A stretch of DNA of 64,000 nucleotides from Escherichia virus TH43. The notes below the pieces were generated by a model. It was not told the origin of the DNA, ran no database searches, and worked only from the letters and a program-made list of their open reading frames with translations. This document shows positions 44,338 to 63,006 of the stretch, one piece after another. Position 1 is the first letter of the stretch. Each line of letters starts with the position of its first letter. A program made the position numbers and the translations under genes. The stretch lies in sequence record MT446414.1; one strand, 5' to 3'.

Positions 44338-44760
44338 TTGAAGATAGAGTTAGAATACCCCTTCGTTAATGACTGGCGATTGGGCTACTTAAGAACAAGC
44401 AGAGACGGTAGGAAGCGTGTTGATTTGTATAATACCGACACGGAGAGGACAACCATTTCTTACGCAAGATATTTAATGTCTTGTCACATAGGCAGGTACC
44501 TAACTGAAGACGAGGAGGTTGATCATATTGACAGAAATAAAACTAATGATGACATATCTAATCTTCAGATACTTTCCATAGAAAATCACAGAAAGAAGTC
44601 AACATTAGAAGCAACTACTGGAAGAACAATGATTTCAGTTGTTTGCTCTTATTGTGGAAGATCTTTTGAAAAAGAAAAGCGAAATGTTAAATATGCAAAT
44701 TCTTTTTGTAACAGATCATGTGCAGGTAAGTATAACGGTTTCAAATCTATCGGGGCGTAG
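44338..44760 (+). CDS. HNH homing endonuclease
   Basis: EVDHIDRNKTNDDISNLQILSIENHRKK is a classic HNH core, plus C-terminal CxxC ... C...C; TTG start with GGAGGGG upstream. Confidence 0.65.
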   Translation: MKIELEYPFVNDWRLGYLRTSRDGRKRVDLYNTDTERTTISYARYLMSCHIGRYLTEDEEVDHIDRNKTNDDISNLQILSIENHRKKSTLEATTGRTMISVVCSYCGRSFEKEKRNVKYANSFCNRSCAGKYNGFKSIGA

Positions 44761-44826
44761 TCTAGTGGAACAGGCAGCGAGCTTCTAACTCGCCTTACGA
44801 GGGTTCGAATCCTTCCGTCCCGACCA
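44751..44826 (+). tRNA. tRNA-Arg (anticodon UCU)
   Basis: Manual cloverleaf: acceptor CGGGGCG/CGTCCCG, D-arm GTCT-AGTGGAAC-AGGC, anticodon arm GCGAG-CTTCTAA-CTCGC, T-arm GAGGG-TTCGAAT-CCTTC, discriminator A, encoded CCA; 76 nt. Confidence 0.8.
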
Positions 44827-47293: not shown

Positions 47294-47707
47294 ATGGCTG
47301 GGAAACTCCCCAACGTAAGCAAGAAATTGGCCTACCTCACGTATAAAGAAAACATTGATCTTCTGGTCAAGCTTTATCCGGCTTCATTCAACAAGCAATT
47401 CCCTCTTCCTTTGGAGCTTAACATCCATAAGGAAATAGCCCGTAAGACCGGTTGGTCAGCGGAGAAAACAAGCATGGTGCTCAACATCTGGACTACTCGT
47501 ATGGAGTATGTGATGATGGCCTGTAGCACTGGTAAACGCTTCAAGCTGCACTCTGTAGCTATGAAGATTCGTAGTCCTATTGACCCTGAGCCAATGGCTG
47601 GGTTCAGCAGCCGTCTGAAATCTTTCCGTGATCGTGGTCGTGTAGTGAAGTTTAAGCACGACTTCTCTTATAAGTTTGGATACGAAGCGTTCCAATTCGT
47701 TGTTTAA
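47294..47707 (+). CDS. FinO/ProQ-like RNA-binding protein
   Basis: LYPASFNKQFPLPLELNIHKEIA ... LNIWTT ... GKRFKLHS parallels the ProQ N-terminal FinO-domain pattern; GGAG upstream of ATG. Confidence 0.5.
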   Translation: MAGKLPNVSKKLAYLTYKENIDLLVKLYPASFNKQFPLPLELNIHKEIARKTGWSAEKTSMVLNIWTTRMEYVMMACSTGKRFKLHSVAMKIRSPIDPEPMAGFSSRLKSFRDRGRVVKFKHDFSYKFGYEAFQFVV

Positions 47708-48354: not shown

Positions 48355-48461
48355 TATTTTAAGAGCAGGTTATCCACAGATATTGGGTGATATCTATTTA
48401 ATTGGCCTTAAAGCTTGGCTCTCTTAGGAGAGTCCTTTTTTAAGTTCAAAGAAGAGGTTGT

Positions 48462-48999: not shown

Positions 49000-50220
49000 A
49001 TGTTCCCTGTAACACTTCAAAGCTGGAAAGAATCAGAAGATGTTGTAACCGTCTGGCCTCCTTGTTATGGTTTCCTTAAAGCAGGTTACTATCAGGGTGG
49101 TGATTATGATGAAGATGATGAAGACGGTGATCCTGACTACTACAACACGTATGACAGCAACTACGGCTGGAATATCCGCATCAAGGTGTGGAGTACAAAT
49201 ATGATGGTTCGTCAAGGCACTGCTGAAGAGAATGTTCTTGAGAATATGTTGCCTATGTCTGAAATCAAGTATATCTGGAACTCCGGAACACATCTTCCAG
49301 CTCACGGTGTAAGACGTTATGGTGATACTGAATATATCGCTACTCAGTATTTCCGTGAAGGGTTAGAAAATGAAGACCCTCGTCCTCCTTCTCATGTAGA
49401 AACATGGGCAGAAGAAAACAACCGTCCTGACATCACTGATCGTGTTGTTATGGAAACCTTTGCAGCATTTATGGACAAAGACTCTGACTCATGTCTGGTG
49501 TGGCATGAAGTGGGGTTCATGGGTGTTTGCACTGATGGCTGTCCCGCTGATCGTGCTCTGTTCTATCTGATGTTGAATCGCACATTCTATACAGATGATG
49601 AAAAATCTGCTGTGTATGAAATGTTGAACAAGATGTATAAGAAGGGCTGGTCTCCTTTAGCCTCTCTTGCATTCAGCCGACTGATCAACTCTTCAGTGGA
49701 TGTGTTCGGTAACGAACGTGTTGCTTTAACAGGGAATGATTACGATTCCTGTATCTTCCAAGCATCTCTGTATACAGTGGGTGTTGGTAGTACAATGGTT
49801 GAGCCTCGCCAGACCAAATGGCGACAGTGTGAATACACTGAAGGTGAAGGTCATCTTCGTGATGAAGACTTCTCCAGTCTGATCTATCGCAGTGAAGGTG
49901 TTCGTGATTGTCGAGTGAACAACTCGATGTTCTTGCCAATCCTTTTGCCTCAATATTGCCATCTGTCGGAAGATACCCGCCCAATCATCACAGAAAAGTC
50001 ACTCTTGGTTGAATTTATCCGAGAGGTGGCTGAATCTGAAACATCTTTTGCTAAAATTGTGTTCGGTTATAACTGGAACAATGAAACAGCTTCAGCTCGA
50101 AGCTACAACATGTATAACATTATCAGTAGTATGTCCAATGGACTGACAGGTAGTAATTATACAGTACGTCCCTCAGAAGAGTGGGAAAACATTTTGGAAA
50201 AATTATTCTTCAATAAATAG
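49000..50220 (+). CDS. hypothetical protein, 406 aa (first gene of enzyme cluster)
   Basis: Acidic N-terminal stretch; AAAGAGG upstream; no motif recognised. Confidence 0.55.
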   Translation: MFPVTLQSWKESEDVVTVWPPCYGFLKAGYYQGGDYDEDDEDGDPDYYNTYDSNYGWNIRIKVWSTNMMVRQGTAEENVLENMLPMSEIKYIWNSGTHLPAHGVRRYGDTEYIATQYFREGLENEDPRPPSHVETWAEENNRPDITDRVVMETFAAFMDKDSDSCLVWHEVGFMGVCTDGCPADRALFYLMLNRTFYTDDEKSAVYEMLNKMYKKGWSPLASLAFSRLINSSVDVFGNERVALTGNDYDSCIFQASLYTVGVGSTMVEPRQTKWRQCEYTEGEGHLRDEDFSSLIYRSEGVRDCRVNNSMFLPILLPQYCHLSEDTRPIITEKSLLVEFIREVAESETSFAKIVFGYNWNNETASARSYNMYNIISSMSNGLTGSNYTVRPSEEWENILEKLFFNK

Positions 50221-50228
50221 AGGCGAAT

Positions 50229-51179
50229 ATGTCAATCTCCGCATCGACTGCTCCGGTAACACCATCAGAGGACTTTGGTGAGTCAGTGTTCAGAGGGCGA
50301 GCTTGTTTTGGTACTTTCAACTGTCAGCATATGTATGCTGTTACAGACATTAATGGCGACAGTATCAATCTCTCAAGCCTTCGTGATAGAACTTCAGAAG
50401 TTGGAGTTATCAACTTCTGGCCTCACAATTTTTATGGCGTACCAGCTAAAGATATCGAAAGAGCTTTAGTTGAAGCAACAGACATTTTTAACTCAATGTC
50501 TTGCTATAAAAACATGTTCTCTGTCACTTCGGTGAACTCAGTTGCCGTGAACCTTCGAGACCACCCAGCAGACAAGGTGTTTACTGGATTAATGACCCTC
50601 CGTAGTTATCTGGATGGGGATTTTATGGGAATGGAGTTCCTTCAGGAAGGCGTTCAAGACAAGGAAGAGTTACTCAAGCGACAACGAATCGGCTTAGCTT
50701 TACGCTTAGCTGGTTTAAGTCGTAACTTCTTTGGTCGTTGGGATTATTCACATGATGTGGATACTGATGATGAATCAGCAGCGACCTATTTTACTGGCGA
50801 AATGAGTGCAATTGCATTCTTGCCACTGGTCTGTACCACTGACGAATTTTCTGAAAACGTATGGGTTCAGAACGTGTTCGGTGTTGGTGATAACAGAGAT
50901 GGTTATGTACGAAACCATAATGACGGAGTTCTTCGTAGTATGGCTCGTCGTCGTGACCAAGACCCTGACTATTACGAGAGTATGAGTGAGTGGTTGCGTC
51001 TCTGGTCAATGTGTGCAGGCCATAAACGTGAAGTATTAGATCAGCGTATGGACAGAATTACTGTTCGCAGTTTTATTGAACGCTTGATGCAAGCAGTACC
51101 TTCCTCAATGACACCAGAAGAAGCTGGTGCCCGTGTTGTTTCCCTTTTTGATGAACTTGTGGAGTATTACAATGACTAA
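50229..51179 (+). CDS. hypothetical protein, 316 aa
   Basis: Co-linear, tightly spaced with neighbours; no motif. Confidence 0.55.
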   Translation: MSISASTAPVTPSEDFGESVFRGRACFGTFNCQHMYAVTDINGDSINLSSLRDRTSEVGVINFWPHNFYGVPAKDIERALVEATDIFNSMSCYKNMFSVTSVNSVAVNLRDHPADKVFTGLMTLRSYLDGDFMGMEFLQEGVQDKEELLKRQRIGLALRLAGLSRNFFGRWDYSHDVDTDDESAATYFTGEMSAIAFLPLVCTTDEFSENVWVQNVFGVGDNRDGYVRNHNDGVLRSMARRRDQDPDYYESMSEWLRLWSMCAGHKREVLDQRMDRITVRSFIERLMQAVPSSMTPEEAGARVVSLFDELVEYYND

Positions 51180-51978
51180 GCGTGCTTTCCTTATTGGTTC
51201 TGACCCTGAAATGTTTGTTCGTACTGCTTCTGGTGTTATCACCTCTGTGGCTGGTAAGCTGGGCTGTTCTAAAGATAACAAAATTGATCTGGCCCCTGAT
51301 GTTCGTCTTCAAGAAGACAACGTTCTGGCTGAATTCGATATTAACCCACAGAAAGGGTTCGAAGCGTTTGATGATAACATCCAGCGTGGTATTGATCTGA
51401 CCAACAAAGTTCTTAATGAACGTGGTATGGAAGCTGCACTTGGGATTAGTTCTCATGTGTACACTTCTGAAGAGCTGCAATCATTCCATCCATCAGCCTT
51501 TGTGTTTGGCTGTACTCCTGATTTCAACGCCTTCACTGGTCAGAAAAACCCATCTCCGGTAGCGACAGACAAAGGTCTTCGTACTGCTGGCGGTCACGTA
51601 CACCTCGGTGTTGCAGGGTCTTTGGAAGTAACTCGACAGACTCAGATGATGCTGGGTGTTCTGTGTGATTACTTCTTGTCACTTCCAGCGGTAATTATGG
51701 ATAAGGACACTCGTCGTAAAGAGCTTTACGGCAAGGCATCTGCTATTCGTTATAAAGATTATGGTATTGAATACCGTTCTCTGTCGAACTTCTGGATTGG
51801 TGAACAGTCCACTCGTAAGTTTGTTTACGATCAAGTTGATAAGGTTATTCAGGGCTGTGATATGGAAATTCTCATGTCTCTGCACTCCCGTCTGCCTATC
51901 GAAAAGCTTCACAACATCATCAATAGCAACGATGTTAAAGAAGCGGATAAGTTCTCCTCTAAACTCCAGATTATCTAA
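51172..51978 (+). CDS. amidoligase-like protein (GCS2 / glutamine-synthetase-like fold), paralog A
   Basis: N-terminal LIGSDPEMFV and central GGHVHLGV resemble carboxylate-amine ligase metal/ATP motifs; ATG 51172 with GGAG upstream. Confidence 0.45.
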   Translation: MTKRAFLIGSDPEMFVRTASGVITSVAGKLGCSKDNKIDLAPDVRLQEDNVLAEFDINPQKGFEAFDDNIQRGIDLTNKVLNERGMEAALGISSHVYTSEELQSFHPSAFVFGCTPDFNAFTGQKNPSPVATDKGLRTAGGHVHLGVAGSLEVTRQTQMMLGVLCDYFLSLPAVIMDKDTRRKELYGKASAIRYKDYGIEYRSLSNFWIGEQSTRKFVYDQVDKVIQGCDMEILMSLHSRLPIEKLHNIINSNDVKEADKFSSKLQII

Positions 51979-51987
51979 GGTGTTATC

Positions 51988-52614
51988 GTGAGCCTGTTAA
52001 GAGATTTTCAGCATTATTATTGCGGAACATGGATTGCCCAACGTGCAGAACGAGGGATTAATTTACCTCTTTATGTACTCAACGTGAACCAAGCAAACCG
52101 CTTTGGAGAAGATGACTTCTCTCACGAAGCAGAAATGGCCTTAACTTTTGAAGTTGAACGCTGGTCTAAGAACGCCGAAGGGCAGTTTGAACGACAGGTT
52201 GTTCAGGGCATTCCTGTGTTTGATCAAAGCCTTATTCTGGAATCTCCAGATGTGGGATACTTACAACACGGCAACAACATGGTAAGCTGGACTCATATCA
52301 ACCCTGTTCGTCAGCGAGCTAAAGGTCTGATGGGGAACAAATTACGTGGTGCACCTCCTTCAATGGGTCGTTCGATTCCGGGAGAGCTGGTGTATAATCT
52401 GTTTAATCCTGACTTCGAAGGTCTGGTTACTCGCTTCATCTACATCAACCCTGTCGATGGTAAAGTTTATTACAAAGGGGCACTTGTAGGTCAAGTTGAT
52501 CTTTCTGCTGGTTACGGCGACAATGGTCGTCAATCTTTAAATCTTCTGGAGAAGTTCAAGCATATTTCTTCAGATCTGTCATCATATAATGTAGAGTTGG
52601 TGGAAACGTTATGA
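51988..52614 (+). CDS. hypothetical protein, 208 aa
   Basis: GTG start with AAGGTG upstream; stop overlaps next start. Confidence 0.5.
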   Translation: MSLLRDFQHYYCGTWIAQRAERGINLPLYVLNVNQANRFGEDDFSHEAEMALTFEVERWSKNAEGQFERQVVQGIPVFDQSLILESPDVGYLQHGNNMVSWTHINPVRQRAKGLMGNKLRGAPPSMGRSIPGELVYNLFNPDFEGLVTRFIYINPVDGKVYYKGALVGQVDLSAGYGDNGRQSLNLLEKFKHISSDLSSYNVELVETL

Positions 52615-53711
52615 CAACCGTAGCACAAGTTTTTGGATACCGTAATGCTCGTCTGGCTGAGCCGCACCCAAGCATCGCTTTTCAGTGTGGTATTGGCATC
52701 GAGCTGGAAGTTGAAGGAACCTCTGAAATTGATGCAGACCTTTGGGTTTGTACTGAAGATGGTTCACTTCGTGATGGCTGTGAGATGGTTTGTGCACGGC
52801 CTTATAACGGTGTAGAATTGCTTAGTGCTATTAACAATCTGAGTGAAGCAGTACAAGACTCTGAAGCTGAAGGGACTTGGCGCTGCTCTACTCACGTTCA
52901 TATGGATATGCGTGACGCTGATAGTAACATCCTGAAGAAAGTAATTCTTGGATGGACGTTCTATGAAAAGATGATGTTCAAATGTTCTGGATACCATCGC
53001 TATCGTAGCAACTTCTGTCCTGCCTTTGCTGTTGTTCAAGCACAGGTAATGAATGCTTCCGCAGCGTTCAACCGAGATGGTGAAGCCTTCTTCAATACTC
53101 TTGTTAATAGCTGGGACAAGTACACCTCCCTTAACCTATTACCTCTGGCTCAGTTTGGTTCTGTTGAATTTCGTATCTCAGAGCCAAAGTGGAAGAAAAG
53201 CCAACTCCTTAATCTGGTCAACCGCTTCTTGGTTCTCAAGAAACTAGCTGTTGAGTATGCAGATTTGGACAATGAAGCATATGTTGAGAAACTGAATGAG
53301 CTACGCTTCGCTCCTATGATTCAGTATCTGCCTCTGGACTACACACCTAATGATGATGACCTGACTGGCGGTTATCGTTTGGCTCGTGATATTCTGTTCT
53401 GTCGTGAACATTCTGTTACTCTGGTTGGTCGTGTTCGTGTACAGCAGACTGGACCTGATGGTGAAATCCTTATCAACTTGCGTGACATGGGTGACTTCTA
53501 CGGTTTCTTGGGATATGTACGAGGTAATGCTAACTCTGTTTATGAAGAGATCATGACCTATTACACCCCTCAGATTGAAAACACTCGAATCGCAACGGTT
53601 CGTGAAATTCGTCACATGTTTGCTCTGATGCGTGAATCAGGTAGCAGTGATAATAACATCACCGATTACATTCCAGACCATCTGGAAATGCAATTAGAAC
53701 GACTGCTGTAA
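52611..53711 (+). CDS. amidoligase (GCS2-like carboxylate-amine ligase), paralog B
   Basis: GIGIELEVEG near N-terminus and CSTHVHMDM downstream, the E-x-E ... H-V-H arrangement of GCS2-type ligases. Confidence 0.5.
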   Translation: MTTVAQVFGYRNARLAEPHPSIAFQCGIGIELEVEGTSEIDADLWVCTEDGSLRDGCEMVCARPYNGVELLSAINNLSEAVQDSEAEGTWRCSTHVHMDMRDADSNILKKVILGWTFYEKMMFKCSGYHRYRSNFCPAFAVVQAQVMNASAAFNRDGEAFFNTLVNSWDKYTSLNLLPLAQFGSVEFRISEPKWKKSQLLNLVNRFLVLKKLAVEYADLDNEAYVEKLNELRFAPMIQYLPLDYTPNDDDLTGGYRLARDILFCREHSVTLVGRVRVQQTGPDGEILINLRDMGDFYGFLGYVRGNANSVYEEIMTYYTPQIENTRIATVREIRHMFALMRESGSSDNNITDYIPDHLEMQLERLL

Positions 53712-53818
53712 CACAATGGGCGCTCTGATAAAGGGCGCATTTAAAGGTTAATTAGATGAAAGGGTTTACCCTTCAGGTGGATTAGAAAATTTGTGGTATC
53801 GTATTAGCTGGGGGCAAC

Positions 53819-55822
53819 ATGACCTCCACAGACTTAGACGTATTCAACCAGCTTCTGTATGCTGGGGTCTTCCGTGGTCAGCACTCAACTGGTGTGTTCG
53901 GTCAGCGTAAAGGTGATGAAAAAGTATTTTCTTATAAAGAAGCACTTCCTTCCTATGCCTTCATGCTCCAGACAGGGTACACGAATCTTACTAAGGGGCT
54001 TACGAACTATGTAGTTCCTCCATCGTGGATTGTTGGTCATAGCCGACATGCCACACGTGGTGCTGTCAATGCTCGAAATGCTCACCCATTCTCTCATGGT
54101 GACATTACTCTGGTTCATAATGGTACACTGTTAGATCAGGAACTGTTACCAGATCATAAGAATTTCGAAGTTGATAGCGAAAACATCTGTCATTCAATCA
54201 ACACCATCGGCGCAGCAGAGACTATCCAGAAGTTGGATGGTGCGTTCACTTTAATCTGGCATGACGCCAAAGACAATACTCTGCATATCATTCGTAACGA
54301 TGAACGTCCTTTCCATCTGGCCCGTTGTGGTCTGGATTGGTTTGGTGCTTCTGAAGAAGATATGTTGATGTGGATTCTTAATCGTTCCAAGTCACACAAG
54401 AACCGTATCAATGATCACTTTGAGTGTAAAGTGGGAACTGAATACATCTTTGATTTGTCTGGCAACCGTATGACTCTGACTCAAGAGGTGGAGCACAAGC
54501 TTCCGGTTTTTACGGTAACGAGTCGCTGGGGCGGCTATTACTCGAACTCCTCTCTATATCAGAACCAACAGACAAACAAGTCAAGCAGCAGCACAAGCGA
54601 CATTTACGGAAACAAAGACGACAAGCCCGGCGTGACAAGCGGGGACATTCGTCGTCGTAAAGCGATTGAAGATCAGAATAAACTGGCTGCCGATCGTGGT
54701 CTTCCGTATCGTCGTGACGGTCGTGTGGATATCATCCCTCACGAGTTCCACGCTTACAACAACACTGACCGTGGTAAGATGGTTGGTTATATTTATGATG
54801 ATGCTGCTCAAGAGTATGTTGAGGGTGATGTTCATAATGTAGCCAAGAGTGAATACTTGAAGGCTCTCGAAAACCCAAAGGTGGTGTATCGCGGGACGGT
54901 TGCTTGTATCTCCGAAGTGGACAGTATGATTCGCCTCGTACTCACTTCAGGGCTGTTTGTTGATGCTACCGATAAGGAGCCTCAAAGCACCACCGCTGAT
55001 TTTGATGATGATATCCCTTTTGATTTAGAAGACTCCTTCATCACTAAGAATGGTGTGGAAGTCACCCGTAAGTTCTGGGAATCACATTCTCATGGTGATT
55101 GTGGCGGTTGTGACAAGCACATTGAATGGAAAGATGCTAAGAAAGCTGTGTTCGCTTACCAAGCATATTGGCATCCGGCCTGTTTCGAAGCATTGTCCAA
55201 ACCGTCTGAAGAAGATGAAGACATTCCTTTGGGTGTCTGTGCTGTATGTGGCAATGTTAAAACTGATTTCGAGTTTGATAACGAAATGAGTAAACTTCGT
55301 GGTGAAGATATTTGTTATGTCTGTGCCAAAGAGATCAAAGACAAAGTGACTAACACTACATTGTCTGAAGGTTACATTTGGACTAAAGCAGTTGACACAA
55401 CCAACCCACGTCGCCCTGAAGTAGCAGTTCGTGTTGATCAGCGTATGCTTAGCCGAATGACTGTAATGGCTAGTTCAGCTAAACGTTCTGGTGATATTGA
55501 GCTGTCTGATGTTCCAAACTCTTATTTGGAAAAACGTGGTGGCGATACCTATGCCATCTCTGTTTATGGTCCAAAGAATGCCCCAAAGGAGGTGCCCGCT
55601 GAGAAAGCGGAAACATTTCCAGAAAAGCAAACAACTCTCCGAAAAACAGTTGTCAGTTACGACGGACAACGAACAGCTGAGTTCACAAAAGCCCTCTGGA
55701 CTTCAATTGGGTTTTGTGCAGTCTGTTATAAACAAATTCCGTGGCGTGATGCAGAAGTTTGCTCACTAAACAAAGAAAACAGGGTGATCTGTAATTCAGA
55801 TTACTGTAAAGGTAAACATTAA
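53819..55822 (+). CDS. class-II glutamine amidotransferase-like (Ntn fold) domain fused to a Cys-rich C-terminal module
   Basis: FRGQHSTG, GHSRHATRGAVNARNAHPF, VHNGTL, DSENICH align to conserved blocks of GlmS/AsnB-type GATase domains, but no N-terminal Cys; C-terminal half has several CxxC clusters. Confidence 0.55.
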   Translation: MTSTDLDVFNQLLYAGVFRGQHSTGVFGQRKGDEKVFSYKEALPSYAFMLQTGYTNLTKGLTNYVVPPSWIVGHSRHATRGAVNARNAHPFSHGDITLVHNGTLLDQELLPDHKNFEVDSENICHSINTIGAAETIQKLDGAFTLIWHDAKDNTLHIIRNDERPFHLARCGLDWFGASEEDMLMWILNRSKSHKNRINDHFECKVGTEYIFDLSGNRMTLTQEVEHKLPVFTVTSRWGGYYSNSSLYQNQQTNKSSSSTSDIYGNKDDKPGVTSGDIRRRKAIEDQNKLAADRGLPYRRDGRVDIIPHEFHAYNNTDRGKMVGYIYDDAAQEYVEGDVHNVAKSEYLKALENPKVVYRGTVACISEVDSMIRLVLTSGLFVDATDKEPQSTTADFDDDIPFDLEDSFITKNGVEVTRKFWESHSHGDCGGCDKHIEWKDAKKAVFAYQAYWHPACFEALSKPSEEDEDIPLGVCAVCGNVKTDFEFDNEMSKLRGEDICYVCAKEIKDKVTNTTLSEGYIWTKAVDTTNPRRPEVAVRVDQRMLSRMTVMASSAKRSGDIELSDVPNSYLEKRGGDTYAISVYGPKNAPKEVPAEKAETFPEKQTTLRKTVVSYDGQRTAEFTKALWTSIGFCAVCYKQIPWRDAEVCSLNKENRVICNSDYCKGKH

Positions 55823-55833
55823 GAGGTGAAGTT

Positions 55834-56067
55834 ATGGAAGTTCGTAAATTGATGTTGGATAACGTTGTAACCACTCGACGTATCCCAATGACAAGCACAG
55901 GATGTGACAACCTTCGAGCTATTCAGAAATGGATGCAAGAGGGTATTGGGGGACTGGTTAACTCTCCAGTTGAAATCCCTTTCCCAACCGTTATCAACAA
56001 CGTGTTGGCTGACTATGTGAAATTGAAGGGGATTAAAGTTGAGCCTCATGTCAAGCAAGGGAGCTAA
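55834..56067 (+). CDS. hypothetical protein, 77 aa
   Basis: ATG with GAGGTG upstream. Confidence 0.45.
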   Translation: MEVRKLMLDNVVTTRRIPMTSTGCDNLRAIQKWMQEGIGGLVNSPVEIPFPTVINNVLADYVKLKGIKVEPHVKQGS

Positions 56068-56269
56068 GCCTCACCTGACAATGCTGGAGTATCAACAACT
56101 CCGACTTCAACAACTGGTAACGGAGCAGCGAAAGCTGTATCCGTTTGCTTTTAACCTAATTGATTCACCAAGCGATGACCAAGAAGACGAGATGTTCGCC
56201 AAGTATTGGGAAATCGAAGTTAAAATTCAATCCTGTCGTAACGAAATTCTTAAACTAAAAGGTATCTAA
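56048..56269 (+). CDS. hypothetical acidic protein, about 73 aa
   Basis: Overlaps the previous ORF by 20 nt in another frame; start uncertain. Confidence 0.35.
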   Translation: MSSKGAKPHLTMLEYQQLRLQQLVTEQRKLYPFAFNLIDSPSDDQEDEMFAKYWEIEVKIQSCRNEILKLKGI

Positions 56270-56271
56270 AA

Positions 56272-57519
56272 ATGACTACTCGTATCCGTGTTCTTCCGTA
56301 TGGCCCTTCTGATTCTGTTAACGCTCTGGTAACTGCCATTAACGATACTATCCGTGATGAACGTATCAACGCTAACGTAATGGGTCTTCTTTCAGAGAAC
56401 AGTCGCTGGCGTTCTCGTGAGGGTGATGTGGTTGTGAACTACGGGAACCGTCGCTATCCTGAATCCTTCTTTGGTTCTGCAACTGTTCTTAACCGTACCG
56501 CAGCCTTACATATGGCAGCGAACAAACGTCGCGCTTTCAGTGTGATGGACCAAGCAGGTGTTAAAACTGTTGAGTATACAGATGTTCAATCAACTGCTCA
56601 GGAGTGGTCAAACTCTGGCAACATTGTGTATGAACGTCATGAACTGACTGGTCACTCTGGTTCAGGTATCATTGTTGTAGAGCCTCGTGATTCAGTTGGT
56701 CAAGCTGAACTGTACACCAAAGGTATTCTAGGCCCACGTCGTGAATGGCGTGTCCATGTGTTCAAAGGTGCTATCACCTATGTTCAGAAAAAGATTCGTC
56801 GTAACGGTTATCGTGAAGACCCTAACTATCGTGAAGATGTTCGTAACCATCACACTGGTTGGGTTTACTCAAGTTCCTTCACAGACGTTCCGAACGATGC
56901 CTCTCTGATCAACGCAGTGAAAGCTGTTGAATCAATGGGTCTAGATTTCGGTGCAGTTGATATCATCACCAAAGGTCAAGAAGCATGGGTACTGGAAGTT
57001 AATACAGCACCGGGCCTAACTGGCACAACTCTGGATATCTACCGTCACAATATCCTTGAGTTTGTTAAAGCTCAAAACCCTCTCTATACTCCTCAGTATA
57101 AAGTGGTTTATGCAACACCTGTTGAAGCTTCAATCGAAGATGGAGACGGTGAGTTGGTGGATGATATTGAAAGTGCTGGCGATGAAAACTTTGCACTGGA
57201 AGGTCAGACAGCACAACCGGTTGATTCAGTTGATGTGGTTCCTGAAGAAATGCAATTAGAAGGTCAGATGAATACTCAAACTATTCGTAATGCACCTACT
57301 GGTTATACTTTGTCTCGTGGTTACTGGATTGCAAATATTCGTCATGTTCACAACAACCTGCAACCTAATGCAATGTCTGCCAATGTCATTCTGTTCTGCG
57401 ACGGTCGTAACTTCTACCGCAGTGGTTGGAACGTTCCAGTCCATCCAGCACAGATTAATAACCCTCGTAAGTTAGAGTCTGTAACTGTTGAAGGTAGTGA
57501 AGTAGCAGTAACTCTGTAA
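56272..57519 (+). CDS. ATP-grasp ligase (RimK / glutathione-synthetase-like)
   Basis: GNIVYERHELTGHSGSGIIVV, EWRVHVFKG, LDFGAVDII ... WVLEVNTAPGL are the characteristic ATP-grasp blocks. Confidence 0.65.
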   Translation: MTTRIRVLPYGPSDSVNALVTAINDTIRDERINANVMGLLSENSRWRSREGDVVVNYGNRRYPESFFGSATVLNRTAALHMAANKRRAFSVMDQAGVKTVEYTDVQSTAQEWSNSGNIVYERHELTGHSGSGIIVVEPRDSVGQAELYTKGILGPRREWRVHVFKGAITYVQKKIRRNGYREDPNYREDVRNHHTGWVYSSSFTDVPNDASLINAVKAVESMGLDFGAVDIITKGQEAWVLEVNTAPGLTGTTLDIYRHNILEFVKAQNPLYTPQYKVVYATPVEASIEDGDGELVDDIESAGDENFALEGQTAQPVDSVDVVPEEMQLEGQMNTQTIRNAPTGYTLSRGYWIANIRHVHNNLQPNAMSANVILFCDGRNFYRSGWNVPVHPAQINNPRKLESVTVEGSEVAVTL

Positions 57520-57541
57520 TTAAAAACAAAAGGAATTTGTA

Positions 57542-57784
57542 ATGTTGTCTATCGAAGATTTGATCAGTCGTGGAATGACCGAACAAAAAGAACCTCTGAT
57601 TGTCGGTTCTCGTAAAGCTATTAACCAACTCTGTGAAGAGTTTGGAATCACAAACAAGAGAATGATTGGTAATCAGTTCTCTGCAATTATCACCTTCCTT
57701 AAACGAGGTGATAAATATTCAATGGAATGTGTTGAGCGTATCATCGCAATTGCACAAGAAGATAAGGGAGTAACAACTCTGTGA
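57542..57784 (+). CDS. hypothetical protein, 80 aa
   Basis: ATG with AAGGAA upstream. Confidence 0.45.
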   Translation: MLSIEDLISRGMTEQKEPLIVGSRKAINQLCEEFGITNKRMIGNQFSAIITFLKRGDKYSMECVERIIAIAQEDKGVTTL

Positions 57785-57966
57785 ATAAATACACAATCAT
57801 GTTTCGTACAGTAAACTCAGAAGGGAATATTCAATCTCTGGACATTCAAGCAGAACGCTTTGAATCACTTGGAACAAGTGTTAACTTCTTCCGAGGAGTA
57901 GAGTTGGTAGGTACATTCCAATCTGATGTGTTGACTGGTGTGATCAAACACTTCGAAGTAGAATAA
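57781..57966 (+). CDS. hypothetical protein, 61 aa
   Basis: GTG start overlapping upstream stop. Confidence 0.35.
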   Translation: MNKYTIMFRTVNSEGNIQSLDIQAERFESLGTSVNFFRGVELVGTFQSDVLTGVIKHFEVE

Positions 57967-58031
57967 TTTGCTTTAGCCTCTTCGAAAGAGGAGGCTAGTT
58001 CGAATTTAACTGAAACACAAAAGGTAATATA

Positions 58032-58463
58032 ATGTCTGATAAAGTATTAGTTGCAACGTATGGTTCTCTTCGTAAAGGTCAACACAACCACGCTATCAAT
58101 GCTCGTGCCGGTGGTGTGTCTATTGGTGAAGGTTGGACAGTGAACAACTGTAACCTGTATCAGTATTGCACAGCATACTTCCCAAGTGTATCTCTGGAGC
58201 ACGACAGCAATGGTAAGCCTGTTCGTGTGGAAGTGTTTGAAACAACCCAAGCGGGTTTGGAAGGTCCGTATGACGGTCTGGAAGGTTATCGTGGTAAAGA
58301 CAATCCATACACTTTCTACAATCGTACACTGATTCCAGTGGTGCTGGATAGTGGTGAGACTGTGGAAGCATGGATTTATCATATCGACGAAGAACAAGAT
58401 GTTCTGGTTGAATCTGGCGACTGGACAGCGTATCTGGCAGGTGATCAGGATGACAGTAACTGA
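58032..58463 (+). CDS. gamma-glutamyl cyclotransferase-like (AIG2/GGCT fold) protein
   Basis: N-terminal VATYGSLRKGQ (YGSL motif) and central Glu (VEVFE) in GGCT-like arrangement; AAGG upstream. Confidence 0.55.
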   Translation: MSDKVLVATYGSLRKGQHNHAINARAGGVSIGEGWTVNNCNLYQYCTAYFPSVSLEHDSNGKPVRVEVFETTQAGLEGPYDGLEGYRGKDNPYTFYNRTLIPVVLDSGETVEAWIYHIDEEQDVLVESGDWTAYLAGDQDDSN

Positions 58464-61027: not shown

Positions 61028-62476
61028 ATGATTAAGATTCCATTGTCTGAATTAAACCTTCAAGAAGGAGAAGCCCTCAGTGTAGGGCTTGACCTGATTC
61101 GTAACCTGATCAGAGATAACGTAGTTCCTGATGGTATCTACCCTGTTATTGCAGGTGGTGCTATTCGTGACACGTTCTTCCAGAACCGAACTCCGAATGA
61201 TGTTGATATCTTCCTAGTTCAAGGAGGGTTTCGTTGGAACACTCGTCAGGAAAACAGCCCTGCTAACGTGGGTAATGCTGCACTGTTCCTTGACAACTTC
61301 TTGTCTTGGACAGAGAGTAAGGGACTTCAAGTAACATCTCGCCTAGTTCAGCCTGTTAGTGGGACAACTTACGCTGAAGCACTTTTCACTTTCCAAGAGA
61401 TTTTGGAAGTGGAGATTGACGAAGTGAAGATTCAGATGATGATTAACCTCCCTCTGGATATGGATACTCTGAGCGGTCGCTTCCCTATGATTTGTCAAGG
61501 GTTTATGACTCTCGATGATATGTATGTGTCGAACGAAGGTATGTTTGCAATGGCATATACTAATGATATCCCTGTGGTGACAAGTCGTGACATGAAGTAT
61601 GTCCACAAAAAGTGGCCTGAAGCAACAGTTGCAGTTTACAGCAGTTCTACTGAGTATATGCACCTTGCAATGGGAGCTTTTGGTGAACCAGAAGTTCATC
61701 TGATCAGTGATTTAGTTGGACCTATGGCTGGTGTAAACTTGTATCAGAATCAACGTCGCCACTACACCTTGAAGATGATGGAAACTGTATTAAATATTCC
61801 TAAGGAAGCGGGTCGTATCTATCTGGATGAAGAAGTTAACCTACAGACAGATTGGTCTAGTGAATTAACCACTATTGGTGTTGAAGCAATTACGCAGCCT
61901 TGGACTCCGGGAACTGACAGACGTGACTCTTGGCAACAGACAAGATTCGCAGCACCTGCTACAGAGGCACCTCGTGATACTTTCACTGGTAGTTTTGGTA
62001 GTGCCCGTTCTTCTGGAATGGGTACTCGTACATGGCACGTCACTCATGATACAGGTGGAGTAACTGTTCGACCTGCTTCTTCTCCATCTATGGGTGATTT
62101 GCAGCGCTCCCGTCGTTCATGGGAAACAGTTAGCTCTGTTGTTCAGGGTCTACGTTCTAGTGATATAGAACGTGTAGAAGTTGGTGATTTGCCAACCCCT
62201 ACGGAAGATCGGGTAGCAGCTATAGCCGCTCGTGAAGCTGCTCGTATTGGTTTTGCATCTTTAGCTAATGATGCTAACAATACTCCTCGACCTGTCGGTC
62301 GTCGTAATGGTCTGGCTCATTCTAACACTGCACTTGGTGCAGAACTCCGAGCAACAGCTCGTGAATTAGTTGGTGAACTTGATAGTAACTTAGCAGGTGT
62401 TACGCTGACTCGTGAAACAGCTCGTAACATGATTAACAATTTGGCATCATCTGTACAAGGAAACAGAAACTCATGA
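61028..62476 (+). CDS. nucleotidyltransferase (Pol-beta superfamily, CCA-adding-enzyme-like head) with long low-complexity C-terminus
   Basis: AGGAIRD ... NDVDIFL matches hG[GS] ... DxD and the GGAVRD head motif of tRNA nucleotidyltransferases. Confidence 0.5.
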   Translation: MIKIPLSELNLQEGEALSVGLDLIRNLIRDNVVPDGIYPVIAGGAIRDTFFQNRTPNDVDIFLVQGGFRWNTRQENSPANVGNAALFLDNFLSWTESKGLQVTSRLVQPVSGTTYAEALFTFQEILEVEIDEVKIQMMINLPLDMDTLSGRFPMICQGFMTLDDMYVSNEGMFAMAYTNDIPVVTSRDMKYVHKKWPEATVAVYSSSTEYMHLAMGAFGEPEVHLISDLVGPMAGVNLYQNQRRHYTLKMMETVLNIPKEAGRIYLDEEVNLQTDWSSELTTIGVEAITQPWTPGTDRRDSWQQTRFAAPATEAPRDTFTGSFGSARSSGMGTRTWHVTHDTGGVTVRPASSPSMGDLQRSRRSWETVSSVVQGLRSSDIERVEVGDLPTPTEDRVAAIAAREAARIGFASLANDANNTPRPVGRRNGLAHSNTALGAELRATARELVGELDSNLAGVTLTRETARNMINNLASSVQGNRNS

Positions 62477-63006
62477 GTCTTTTAGGTTCTCAAGAATTAC
62501 ACAGCGTTATTGATAATGGCTTTTTAGATGCGGAGCATAAATATGTTAACGCTGCTAGTGTGGATATCCGTATTGGTGATACTATCCTTGTTGAAGAACA
62601 GGCTGACGGCATTGTTGACATTGATGCTAAAGAAAACCTCAAGTGGAAAGAGGTGAAAATCCCTGAAGATGGTATTGTCATCACTCCGGGACAATTCTTC
62701 TTAGCGCACTCAATGGAAGAGTTTAACCTTCCAGATAACATCTCAAGTCTGTTTGTACTTCGCTCCTCAATGGCTCGTTGTGGTTTGAACCACTTACATG
62801 CTGGTTGGGCTGATGCAGGGTTTAACAGCAGTAAGCTGACCTTTGAATTCCATAACGTTACCCACAACCACAGCTTACGAGTTCGTGCTGGGATGCGTGT
62901 TGGTCAGATGGTTATGTTTGAACACTCTCACGCTGGTGATGATTCCTATGCAGTGAAGGGTCGTTACAATGGCAGCAATGGGGTAGTTGCATCTAAAGGT
63001 GTATAA
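62473..63006 (+). CDS. dcd: dCTP deaminase
   Basis: Full-length resemblance to bacterial dCTP deaminases (dUTPase fold), conserved SSMARCG and GWAD..F blocks. Confidence 0.7.
   Translation: MSLLGSQELHSVIDNGFLDAEHKYVNAASVDIRIGDTILVEEQADGIVDIDAKENLKWKEVKIPEDGIVITPGQFFLAHSMEEFNLPDNISSLFVLRSSMARCGLNHLHAGWADAGFNSSKLTFEFHNVTHNHSLRVRAGMRVGQMVMFEHSHAGDDSYAVKGRYNGSNGVVASKGV

Follow-up and report, generated by a model that had tools for sequence, protein, structure and literature searches.

Ligases of the glutamine synthetase (GS) fold are paired with enzymes that remove a gamma-glutamyl group in several small-molecule systems: PuuA/PuuD, EgtA/EgtC and BtrJ/BtrG. In phages, a set of genes for carboxylate-amine ligases goes by the name 'peptidoglycan modification cassette' in publications citing Iyer et al. 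(2009) and Hardies et al. (2013), where phiEco32, 7-11, LUZ24, PaP3, tf, RIO-1 and CW02 are listed as carriers; Pfam names family PF14395 'Phage phiEco32-like COOH.NH2 ligase-type 2'. Here we analyse the block 49000–58463 of a stretch of 64,000 nt from Escherichia virus TH43 (sequence record MT446414.1; the whole stretch is referred to as the window), which is assigned by its sequence to a Gordonclarkvirinae (phiEco32-like) podophage of E. coli. All five enzyme genes of the phiEco32-type cassette were found in the block, in the order seen in phiEco32, PaP3 and 7-11-like phages and upstream of replication genes. The block is this already described amidoligase cassette, annotated in GenBank. A first-pass annotation of the window had proposed a candidate novel system; this was not borne out, as the cassette was described computationally between 2009 and 2013.

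The cassette, for which a function was predicted in 2009, is common and its proteins are expressed. Its synteny is strict among phages that infect enterobacteria, Pseudomonas, Vibrio, marine bacteria or cyanobacteria. Solved structures are lacking for two of the enzyme families, and an accessory protein, X1, has no recognisable fold. No experimental test of cassette function was found in the literature searched, nor were metabolomics papers on LUZ24; the titles and abstracts of papers since 2024 mentioning Gordonclarkvirinae report neither a cassette function nor a nucleoside analysis.

We tentatively read the cassette as a cytoplasmic pathway in which a small amine or peptide receives a gamma-glutamyl handle that is taken off again later. 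Its product is most likely a small amide or peptide metabolite rather than a modified DNA base. New in this analysis are an ATT start codon of the amidotransferase gene, a core gene order kept in most of 80 loci, the near-exclusive presence of either a Peptidase_C26 (C26) hydrolase or a cyclotransferase, and indications that X1 and a second protein, X2, are lineage-restricted and probably paralogous.

Enzymes of the cassette

The predicted enzyme set consists of three ATP-dependent carboxylate-amine ligases, an N-terminal nucleophile (Ntn) amidotransferase that keeps its catalytic Cys, and a gamma-glutamyl cyclotransferase (GGCT). Searches with profile hidden Markov models, proposed as a check in the first-pass annotation, placed the block proteins in all four expected groups: amidoligases, glutamine amidotransferases (GATases), ATP-grasp enzymes and GGCT.

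Two of the ligases belong to amidoligase families. The COOH-NH2 ligase matches PF14395 (COOH-NH2_lig) with 33.2 bits (cutoff 25, E 4.1e-8) and phrog_3815 (E 2.4e-112), and its invariant residues include D11, E13, E54, R137, H142, H144, R182, E200 and R202. The second matches PF12224 (Amidoligase_2) with 28.6 bits (cutoff 22, E 1.7e-6) and phrog_7469 (E ~2e-143), with E31, E33, E35, DGSLR (50–54), H95, H97, E186 and R188 among its invariant residues. The two had been described as paralogous; the amidoligase assignment stands and the paralogy does not, since the proteins fall into distinct Pfam families and only the R..HVH motif aligns when their profiles are compared.

The third ligase is an ATP-grasp enzyme, as had been proposed. 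Its single sequence stays just under the cutoff of the RimK Pfam family (19.9 bits, cutoff 21). A profile of seven phage homologues matches the RimK structures 5zct and 4iwx (E ~2e-10 over ~220 residues), ranking RimK before cyanophycin synthetase, the D-Ala-D-Ala ligase Ddl and LysX, and the Mg/ATP-binding residues are kept (invariant residues include K85, E158, R160, K174, D230, E242 and N244). The curated models were matched far below their cutoffs (NF007764, 21.8 bits vs 331; rimK_fam, 28.1 vs 143.4). The C-terminal residues 340–409 match phrog_20552.

The assignment of the last gene of the block to a gamma-glutamyl-cyclotransferase-like protein was likewise confirmed: its product matches GGACT with 59.2 bits (cutoff 22.8), and the motifs YG[ST]L and LEG, the latter with the catalytic Glu, are invariant across five homologues. 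Mass spectrometry of phage SU10 detected orthologues of the ATP-grasp ligase, the amidotransferase and the cyclotransferase, which are classed there as products of early genes.

Start codon and domains of the amidotransferase

The N-terminal ~190 residues of the amidotransferase match GATase_6, GATase_7 and GATase_4 (GATase_6: 55.3 bits, cutoff 27, E 9e-15). The first-pass annotation had described a protein of 667 amino acids (aa) starting at ATG 53819, with a class-II GATase domain fused to a Cys-rich module. That start loses the N-terminal Cys by which class-II amidotransferases are defined. Thirty bases upstream of it lies ATT TGT GGT ATC GTA, with an AGGTGG Shine-Dalgarno sequence 8 nt 5' of the ATT. 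Translation from ATT 53789 yields (M)CGIVLAGGN and so restores the class-II Ntn catalytic Cys; the protein started in this way aligns to the GlmS profile from profile position 2. The same start was chosen in the annotation of phage StefiGeyer_Bas88 (Bas88). ATT is kept in all loci of the E. coli clade (among them L012–L015, with phiEco32, and L022); in other lineages the codon ahead of this Cys-Gly is ATG or TTG. On this evidence, the gene is 53789–55822 (677 aa) and does not begin at ATG 53819. Finders of open reading frames (ORFs) that are limited to ATG, GTG and TTG shorten the amidotransferase and lose its catalytic Cys. The conserved ATT may serve to tune translation of the gene down; RNA structure around it was not significant (z −1.7).

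The class-II family assignment thus stands with a corrected start, and the Cys-rich module turns out to be only weakly LIM-like. The protein consists of a glutamine amidotransferase (GAT) domain (residues ~1–200), a middle region with no domain match and the C-terminal Cys-rich module, with phrog_4736 matching residues 2–505. Past residue ~200 the weak LIM-like signal (E 0.006 against Pfam LIM, below cutoff) is the only Pfam match. Matches to GlmS, PurF and AsnB are confined to the GAT domain and far under equivalog cutoffs, with no known acceptor domain fused to it. The tail (55046–55819) has three Cys clusters, two of them with a repeated C-x2-C-x-K-x-I-x-W-[KR]-D-A and a WHxxCF half-LIM signature. 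Tail length varies among phages, the whole protein having 517 aa in PaP3 and 846 aa in Aeromonas phage 4_4572.

These modules, or the extra C-terminal domain of the ATP-grasp ligase, could bind a protein, and RimK is the nearest solved relative of that ligase. Both features would suit a reading that we consider improbable, in which a protein of the host or the phage receives glutamate or a peptide from the RimK-like ATP-grasp and the PafA-like GS-fold ligases, and the amidotransferase and cyclotransferase process or remove it. S6 polyglutamylation, LysW-type carrier chemistry and pupylation would be its models. The structure model of X2 bears a weak resemblance to PafA and Dop, and the cassette contains small conserved ORFs. 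Set against this, there is no tag protein, and the kinship with RimK and the faint likeness to PafA are the only pointers. A Pup- or LysW-like tag among the small ORFs was considered and rejected, as their C-termini are not conserved across phages. The DUF7195 protein has conserved central motifs and variable termini; as its C-terminus is not conserved, it is no Pup-like C-terminal tag.

Gene order and distribution of the cassette

The COOH-NH2 ligase is present in 310 phage records and in at least 4965 protein clusters from metagenomes. Hosts of the phages include Pseudomonas, Escherichia, Vibrio, Aeromonas, Proteus, Salmonella, Cronobacter, Klebsiella, Sinorhizobium and Leptolyngbya; all hosts listed are Gram-negative or cyanobacterial. 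We collected 80 IMG/VR loci encoding a homologue of the ligase (phiEco32 itself is locus L014), called and clustered their genes and annotated the commonest clusters. Results given below for neighbouring genes refer to the 20 commonest clusters scanned (clusters 0–19 except the ligase, plus cluster 21 and u319).

Amidoligase_2 is encoded in 76 of the loci, typically two genes after the ligase, the class-II amidotransferase in 75 and the RimK-like ATP-grasp ligase in 66; DnaB/primase and family-A polymerase genes lie downstream of the cassette in this set. The order in PaP3 is X1-slot, X2-slot, ligase, X3 (a third protein of no assigned function), amidoligase, amidotransferase, small protein, ATP-grasp, cyclotransferase, primase/helicase and polymerase exonuclease subunit. 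Aeromonas phage 4_4572, GAP52, P59 and a 189-kb metagenomic contig have the same order with small variations. The conserved core is ligase–X3–amidoligase–amidotransferase–ATP-grasp plus one gamma-glutamyl-removing enzyme, and this order is kept in most of the 80 loci. The comparison of gene neighbourhoods that had been suggested at the outset therefore finds an order conserved among distant phages.

Two families account for the gamma-glutamyl-removing enzyme. Peptidase_C26, a class-I GATase-like gamma-glutamyl hydrolase, is encoded upstream in 41 of the 80 loci and the GGACT cyclotransferase in 22. C26 occurs alone in 40 loci, GGACT alone in 21 and both in a single one (Fisher p 1e-7). When the loci are grouped into 17 lineages at 50% ligase identity, nine have C26 only, four GGACT only, one is mixed and three have neither. 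A Leptolyngbya phage carries the C26 hydrolase in the X3 slot. Since the two gamma-glutamyl-cleaving families are unrelated and alternate near-exclusively, we argue that gamma-glutamyl removal is a required step. The amidotransferase is kept in nearly all loci alongside C26 or GGCT. It is therefore less likely to be the gamma-glutamyl remover than to be a true donor of ammonia or another hydrolase of a different kind. That the block is a coherent machine for building and trimming gamma-glutamyl or aminoacyl amides, as proposed earlier, is supported; the order across distant phages and this alternation strengthen the case.

Cassettes of marine and environmental origin (L027–L091) have extra conserved genes between the ATP-grasp and helicase genes, encoding proteins of ~248 aa (43 loci), 68 aa (21 loci) and 266 aa (14 loci) with no Pfam match. 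Beside four other cassettes, or within a few kb of them, lie genes resembling those of NAD salvage or reconstitution (L004, 15009–16789; L006, 1–2286; L008, 3754–7963; L010, 16842–18927). These are PRPP-synthetase-like plus NAMPT-like genes, PncB plus PrsA, or NUDIX plus AAA_28; this may be mere co-location of auxiliary metabolic genes.

Predicted pathway

What the sequences show directly are the enzyme families with their catalytic motifs intact, the conservation of gene order and the alternation of C26 with GGCT. For the order of steps, the gamma-glutamyl handle and its small-molecule acceptor, we infer the following scheme. Glutamate would be joined through its gamma-carboxyl to an amine-bearing acceptor of low molecular weight (an amine, an amino acid or a short peptide). 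The other ligases would form one or two more amide bonds; alternatively, they would amidate a carboxylate, with the amidotransferase supplying the ammonia. The gamma-glutamyl handle, having a free alpha-amino group, would finally be cleaved off as 5-oxoproline by the cyclotransferase, with release of the small amide or peptide product; in other phages the Peptidase_C26 hydrolase would take this step, releasing glutamate. The cyclotransferase reaction requires a free alpha-amine on the gamma-glutamyl group.

That requirement bears on the published proposal for the cassette. As later papers relate the proposal of Iyer et al. (2009) and Hardies et al. (2013), the three unusual linkages in the stem peptide of murein would be remade by the three ligases, and host peptide would be degraded by the amidotransferase and cyclotransferase; the altered peptidoglycan or its precursors would block superinfection or prepare lysis. 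The number of ligases fits, the ATP-grasp profile matches D-Ala-D-Ala ligases as well (more weakly than RimK), the range of hosts given above is suitable, and MurT/GatD is a precedent for glutamine-dependent amidation of stem peptides. We nevertheless regard the proposal as unlikely. It is purely computational, as noted above, and nothing computed here specifically supports it. No Mur-ligase, transpeptidase or other cell-wall gene was seen in the neighbour clusters scanned, and remodelling of the sacculus would be of doubtful benefit to a virulent phage with a short cycle. Furthermore, the gamma-D-Glu of murein has an acylated alpha-amine and would thus not be usable by the cyclotransferase.

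Several observations also weigh against a gamma-glutamyl handle on a small molecule. The cassette always adjoins replication genes, and the reported resistance of Gordonclarkvirinae to restriction-modification (see below) is left unexplained. RimK, the nearest relative of the ATP-grasp ligase, modifies a protein, and the zinc-finger-like modules on the amidotransferase could dock a macromolecule. NCBIfam matches of the cassette enzymes are all far under equivalog cutoffs, with no characterised orthologue, and searches of PDB sequences with single proteins and family profiles yielded no relatives of either the COOH-NH2 ligase or Amidoligase_2. The C26/GGCT alternation is partly confounded by phylogeny, and 18 of the 80 loci, some of them truncated, have neither enzyme.

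DNA modification and restriction

Gordonclarkvirinae were reported to be remarkably resistant to restriction-modification systems (all those tested), with no known modification pathway. Such resistance would be accounted for if the cassette decorated a DNA base, or a deoxynucleoside triphosphate, with an amino-acid-derived group. Site counts in the window are ordinary for EcoRI (15), EcoRV (26), EcoKI (9) and EcoP1 (120), whereas T7 has no EcoRI or EcoRV site. Amidoligase and amidotransferase Pfam genes co-occur with thymidine-hypermodification genes in some viral contigs, and the cassette lies next to primase/helicase and polymerase genes.

Nonetheless, modification of this kind is highly unlikely in our view. 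No signal of a ThyA-like hydroxymethylase, TET/JBP, 5-HMUDK or aGPT-Pplase was found in the cassette, the Bas88 genome or the neighbour clusters scanned, and the clusters contained no recognisable DNA-base transferase. The only thymidylate synthase of the near-identical Bas88 genome is ThyX (PF02511, E 5e-43). It should be said that X1, X2 and X3 match nothing in Pfam, PHROG functions, NCBIfam or PDB, so that their folds are unassigned and the lack of matches to 5-HMUDK and aGPT-Pplase does not prove absence. Of 16 restriction enzymes, 11 cut the DNA of U17, a LUZ24-like phage that carries this cassette too, and the termini of phiEco32 were mapped by restriction profiling. Phage T5 resists restriction in vivo without any base modification.

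The composition of the window points the same way. Six-bp palindromes are strongly avoided, as is CCWGG, which occurs four times against 87 expected. The avoidance has the same form as in unmodified T7 and indicates a history of exposure to type II restriction. Many GC-rich 6-bp palindromes are scarce (BamHI 0, PstI 2, KpnI 1, SacI 1, NcoI 1, SalI 1), and GATC was observed 141 times against 244 expected in the whole window (1–64000). There is no depletion of HindIII (25) and BclI (26) sites, nor of those of EcoRI and EcoRV; in T7 the counts for EcoRI, EcoRV, HindIII and BclI are 0, 0, 0 and 1. We considered AT-rich palindromes as a sign of thymine modification, given that avoidance falls with A+T content (Spearman 0.51). 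Unmodified T7 has the same gradient (0.51), which makes it generic, and the idea was dropped.

In vivo resistance has been reported against EcoRI and EcoRV, two of the enzymes whose sites are spared in this selective pattern. A 482-aa 'nucleotidyltransferase' (61028–62476, +), invoked in the literature as a possible DNA-modification gene, is flanked by the genes for the polymerase exonuclease subunit and for the dCTP deaminase. We rejected a role for it in DNA modification: neither Pfam nor NCBIfam gave a match, and the SU10 paper labels its orthologue as CCA-adding-enzyme-like.

With no machinery for 5-hydroxymethyldeoxyuridine (5-hmdU) detected, ThyX as the thymidylate synthase, palindromes avoided as in T7 and a related phage with the cassette whose DNA can be restricted, DNA hypermodification is disfavoured. 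A variant in which the cassette makes a new gamma-glutamyl-derived product that underlies the resistance, either a DNA or nucleotide adduct not based on 5-hmdU or a small molecule that inhibits nucleases or other defences of the host, is to our mind very doubtful. The first-pass annotation had named a DNA base, a virion or host protein and a small metabolite as candidate substrates and held that nothing in the sequence decides between them. The latter essentially holds, with the DNA base the least supported of the three; the published cell-wall option was not among these candidates.

Conserved proteins of no assigned function

X1, X2 and X3 have no match in Pfam, NCBIfam, PADLOC, PHROG functions or PDB sequences, X3 having no Pfam match even at E 5. 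In the PDB searches of single proteins and family profiles, relatives were found for the ATP-grasp ligase and the GAT domain only. Fold comparison found no PDB neighbour of X1.

X1 and X2 are probably a diverged paralogous pair. In local profile searches each ranks its own positional counterparts first and the other slot next, and the motif PAD-x5-LM-x2-R is common to both. Among predicted viral structures the best matches of X2 are the uncharacterised proteins that fill the two slots ahead of the ligase gene in GAP52, Aeromonas phage LAh_8, CW02, RIO-1 and tf. Marine-type loci with C26 lack the pair. A sequence-profile link between X1/X2 and the two ligase families was sought with hhalign and rejected, as nothing significant appeared even with a 31-sequence ligase profile.

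X3, which we take to be an obligate partner of the ligase, has homologues encoded next after it in P59, GAP52, Aeromonas phage 4_4572, PaP3 and Vibrio phage WD615, and an X3-type gene follows the ligase directly or almost directly in ~49 of the 80 loci. Homologues of the DUF7195 protein occupy the same slot in GAP52, P59, an Aeromonas phage and the 189-kb contig (L010), and PaP3 orf44 is collinear by eye. The small ORFs of 80 and 61 aa are absent from PaP3, where the cyclotransferase gene directly follows the ATP-grasp gene. No informative domain fusions were found in longer homologues.

Layout of the locus

The block consists of twelve tightly spaced, co-linear ORFs on the + strand (Table 1), whose number, packing and positions in the first-pass annotation agree with the ORF list and, apart from the start of the amidotransferase gene, with the Bas88 annotation. 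Over its whole length it is 98.9% identical to Bas88, 96–98% to TH34, TH42 and ECBP2, and 60–90% to about 90 further Escherichia and Shigella phages (most deposited Gordonclarkvirinae records 60–80%, top 99%). Bas88 belongs to the BASEL collection and grows on an E. coli K-12 derivative, and the near-identity of the window phage to it makes cassette function experimentally tractable. PHROGs assigned every gene of the block to a phage family. The PADLOC defence models gave no match to the cassette proteins, and the Bas88 record has no signal peptide or membrane annotation.

Table 1. Genes of the amidoligase cassette in the window
Feature	Position	Strand	Family matches and remarks
X1, 406-aa conserved protein, no assigned function	49000–50220	+	phrog_13063; lineage-restricted cassette accessory
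X2, 316-aa conserved protein, no assigned function	50229–51179	+	phrog_13102; probable distant X1 paralogue
COOH-NH2 ligase type 2	51172–51978	+	PF14395 ('phage phiEco32-like'), phrog_3815
X3, 208-aa conserved protein, no assigned function	51988–52614	+	phrog_4877; follows ligase
Amidoligase_2	52611–53711	+	PF12224, phrog_7469
Class-II (Ntn) glutamine amidotransferase, 677 aa, ATT start	53789–55822	+	GATase_6, phrog_4736
DUF7195 small protein, 77 aa	55834–56067	+	PF23825, E 1.4e-18
Small clade-specific ORF, 76 aa	56039–56269	+	phrog_13464; no Pfam match
RimK-clade ATP-grasp ligase	56272–57519	+	ATP-grasp ~1–270, acidic linker, ~70-aa C-terminal domain
Small clade-specific ORFs, 80 aa (57542–57784) and 61 aa (57781–57966)	57542–57966	+	no family matches
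Gamma-glutamyl cyclotransferase (GGACT/AIG2-like)	58032–58463	+	PF06094, E 7.6e-16

A terminator-like hairpin with a T-run (48417–48434, +) stands immediately ahead of the block, and a sigma-70-like promoter match (58006–58033, +) directly 5' of the cyclotransferase gene. No convincing + strand terminator was found between the two, which is consistent with a single transcription unit. Upstream of the cassette lies a 137-aa ORF (47294–47707, +) whose product matches the RNA chaperones of the ProQ/FinO family with a score just at the cutoff (PF04352, E 4e-6), and a tRNA-Arg(TCT) gene (44751–44826, +) is located ~4 kb upstream of the block. As to the nucleotide genes said to be nearby, the dCTP deaminase is indeed close (62473–63006, PF22769); the gene resembling a deoxynucleoside monophosphate kinase maps, via Bas88, to ~476–1072 of the window and is thus far from the block.

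Comparison with known systems

The thymidine hypermodification clusters (Lee et al. 2018, 2022) are, like the cassette, phage-encoded and located beside DNA metabolism genes, and some include amidoligase and amidotransferase domains. Their defining enzymes (dUMP hydroxymethylase or TET/JBP, 5-HMUDK and aGPT-Pplase) were not detected in the cassette or the 20 commonest neighbour clusters scanned, and the lineage has ThyX. Pupylation (PafA, Dop and Pup) uses GS-fold ligase chemistry on a gamma-carboxylate, as is predicted for the cassette, and PafA and Dop are weakly resembled by the X2 model.

At the level of single enzymes, the phage amidotransferase has the N-terminal Cys nucleophile in common with GlmS, PurF and AsnB, whose known acceptor domains are without counterpart in the phage protein. 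The alpha-L-glutamate ligases of the RimK family (RimK, MptN, CofF and LysX) are the closest solved and curated family for the phage ATP-grasp ligase; unlike RimK, the phage enzyme has an acidic linker and an extra C-terminal domain, and it scores far under the equivalog cutoffs.

Pathways that use a gamma-glutamyl handle combine a GS-fold, gamma-glutamylcysteine synthetase (GCS)-fold or ATP-grasp ligase with a remover, either a class-I or class-II GATase-like hydrolase or a GGCT-fold cyclotransferase. In putrescine catabolism (PuuA/PuuD), ergothioneine synthesis (EgtA/EgtC), butirosin synthesis (BtrJ/BtrG) and the gamma-glutamyl cycle of glutathione, the enzyme folds are the same as in the cassette. 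Unlike these pathways, the cassette has three ligases and an amidotransferase in a fixed order, and no orthology was found, all scores being far under equivalog cutoffs.

The closest system is the cassette of phiEco32, PaP3, LUZ24, 7-11 and RIO-1 (Iyer et al. 2009; Hardies et al. 2013; Duhaime et al. 2017), which has the same Pfam families in the same gene order as the block. The lineage of the block adds to it the X1/X2 pair, several small ORFs, the long Cys-rich tail of the amidotransferase and the ATT start; nothing essential differs.

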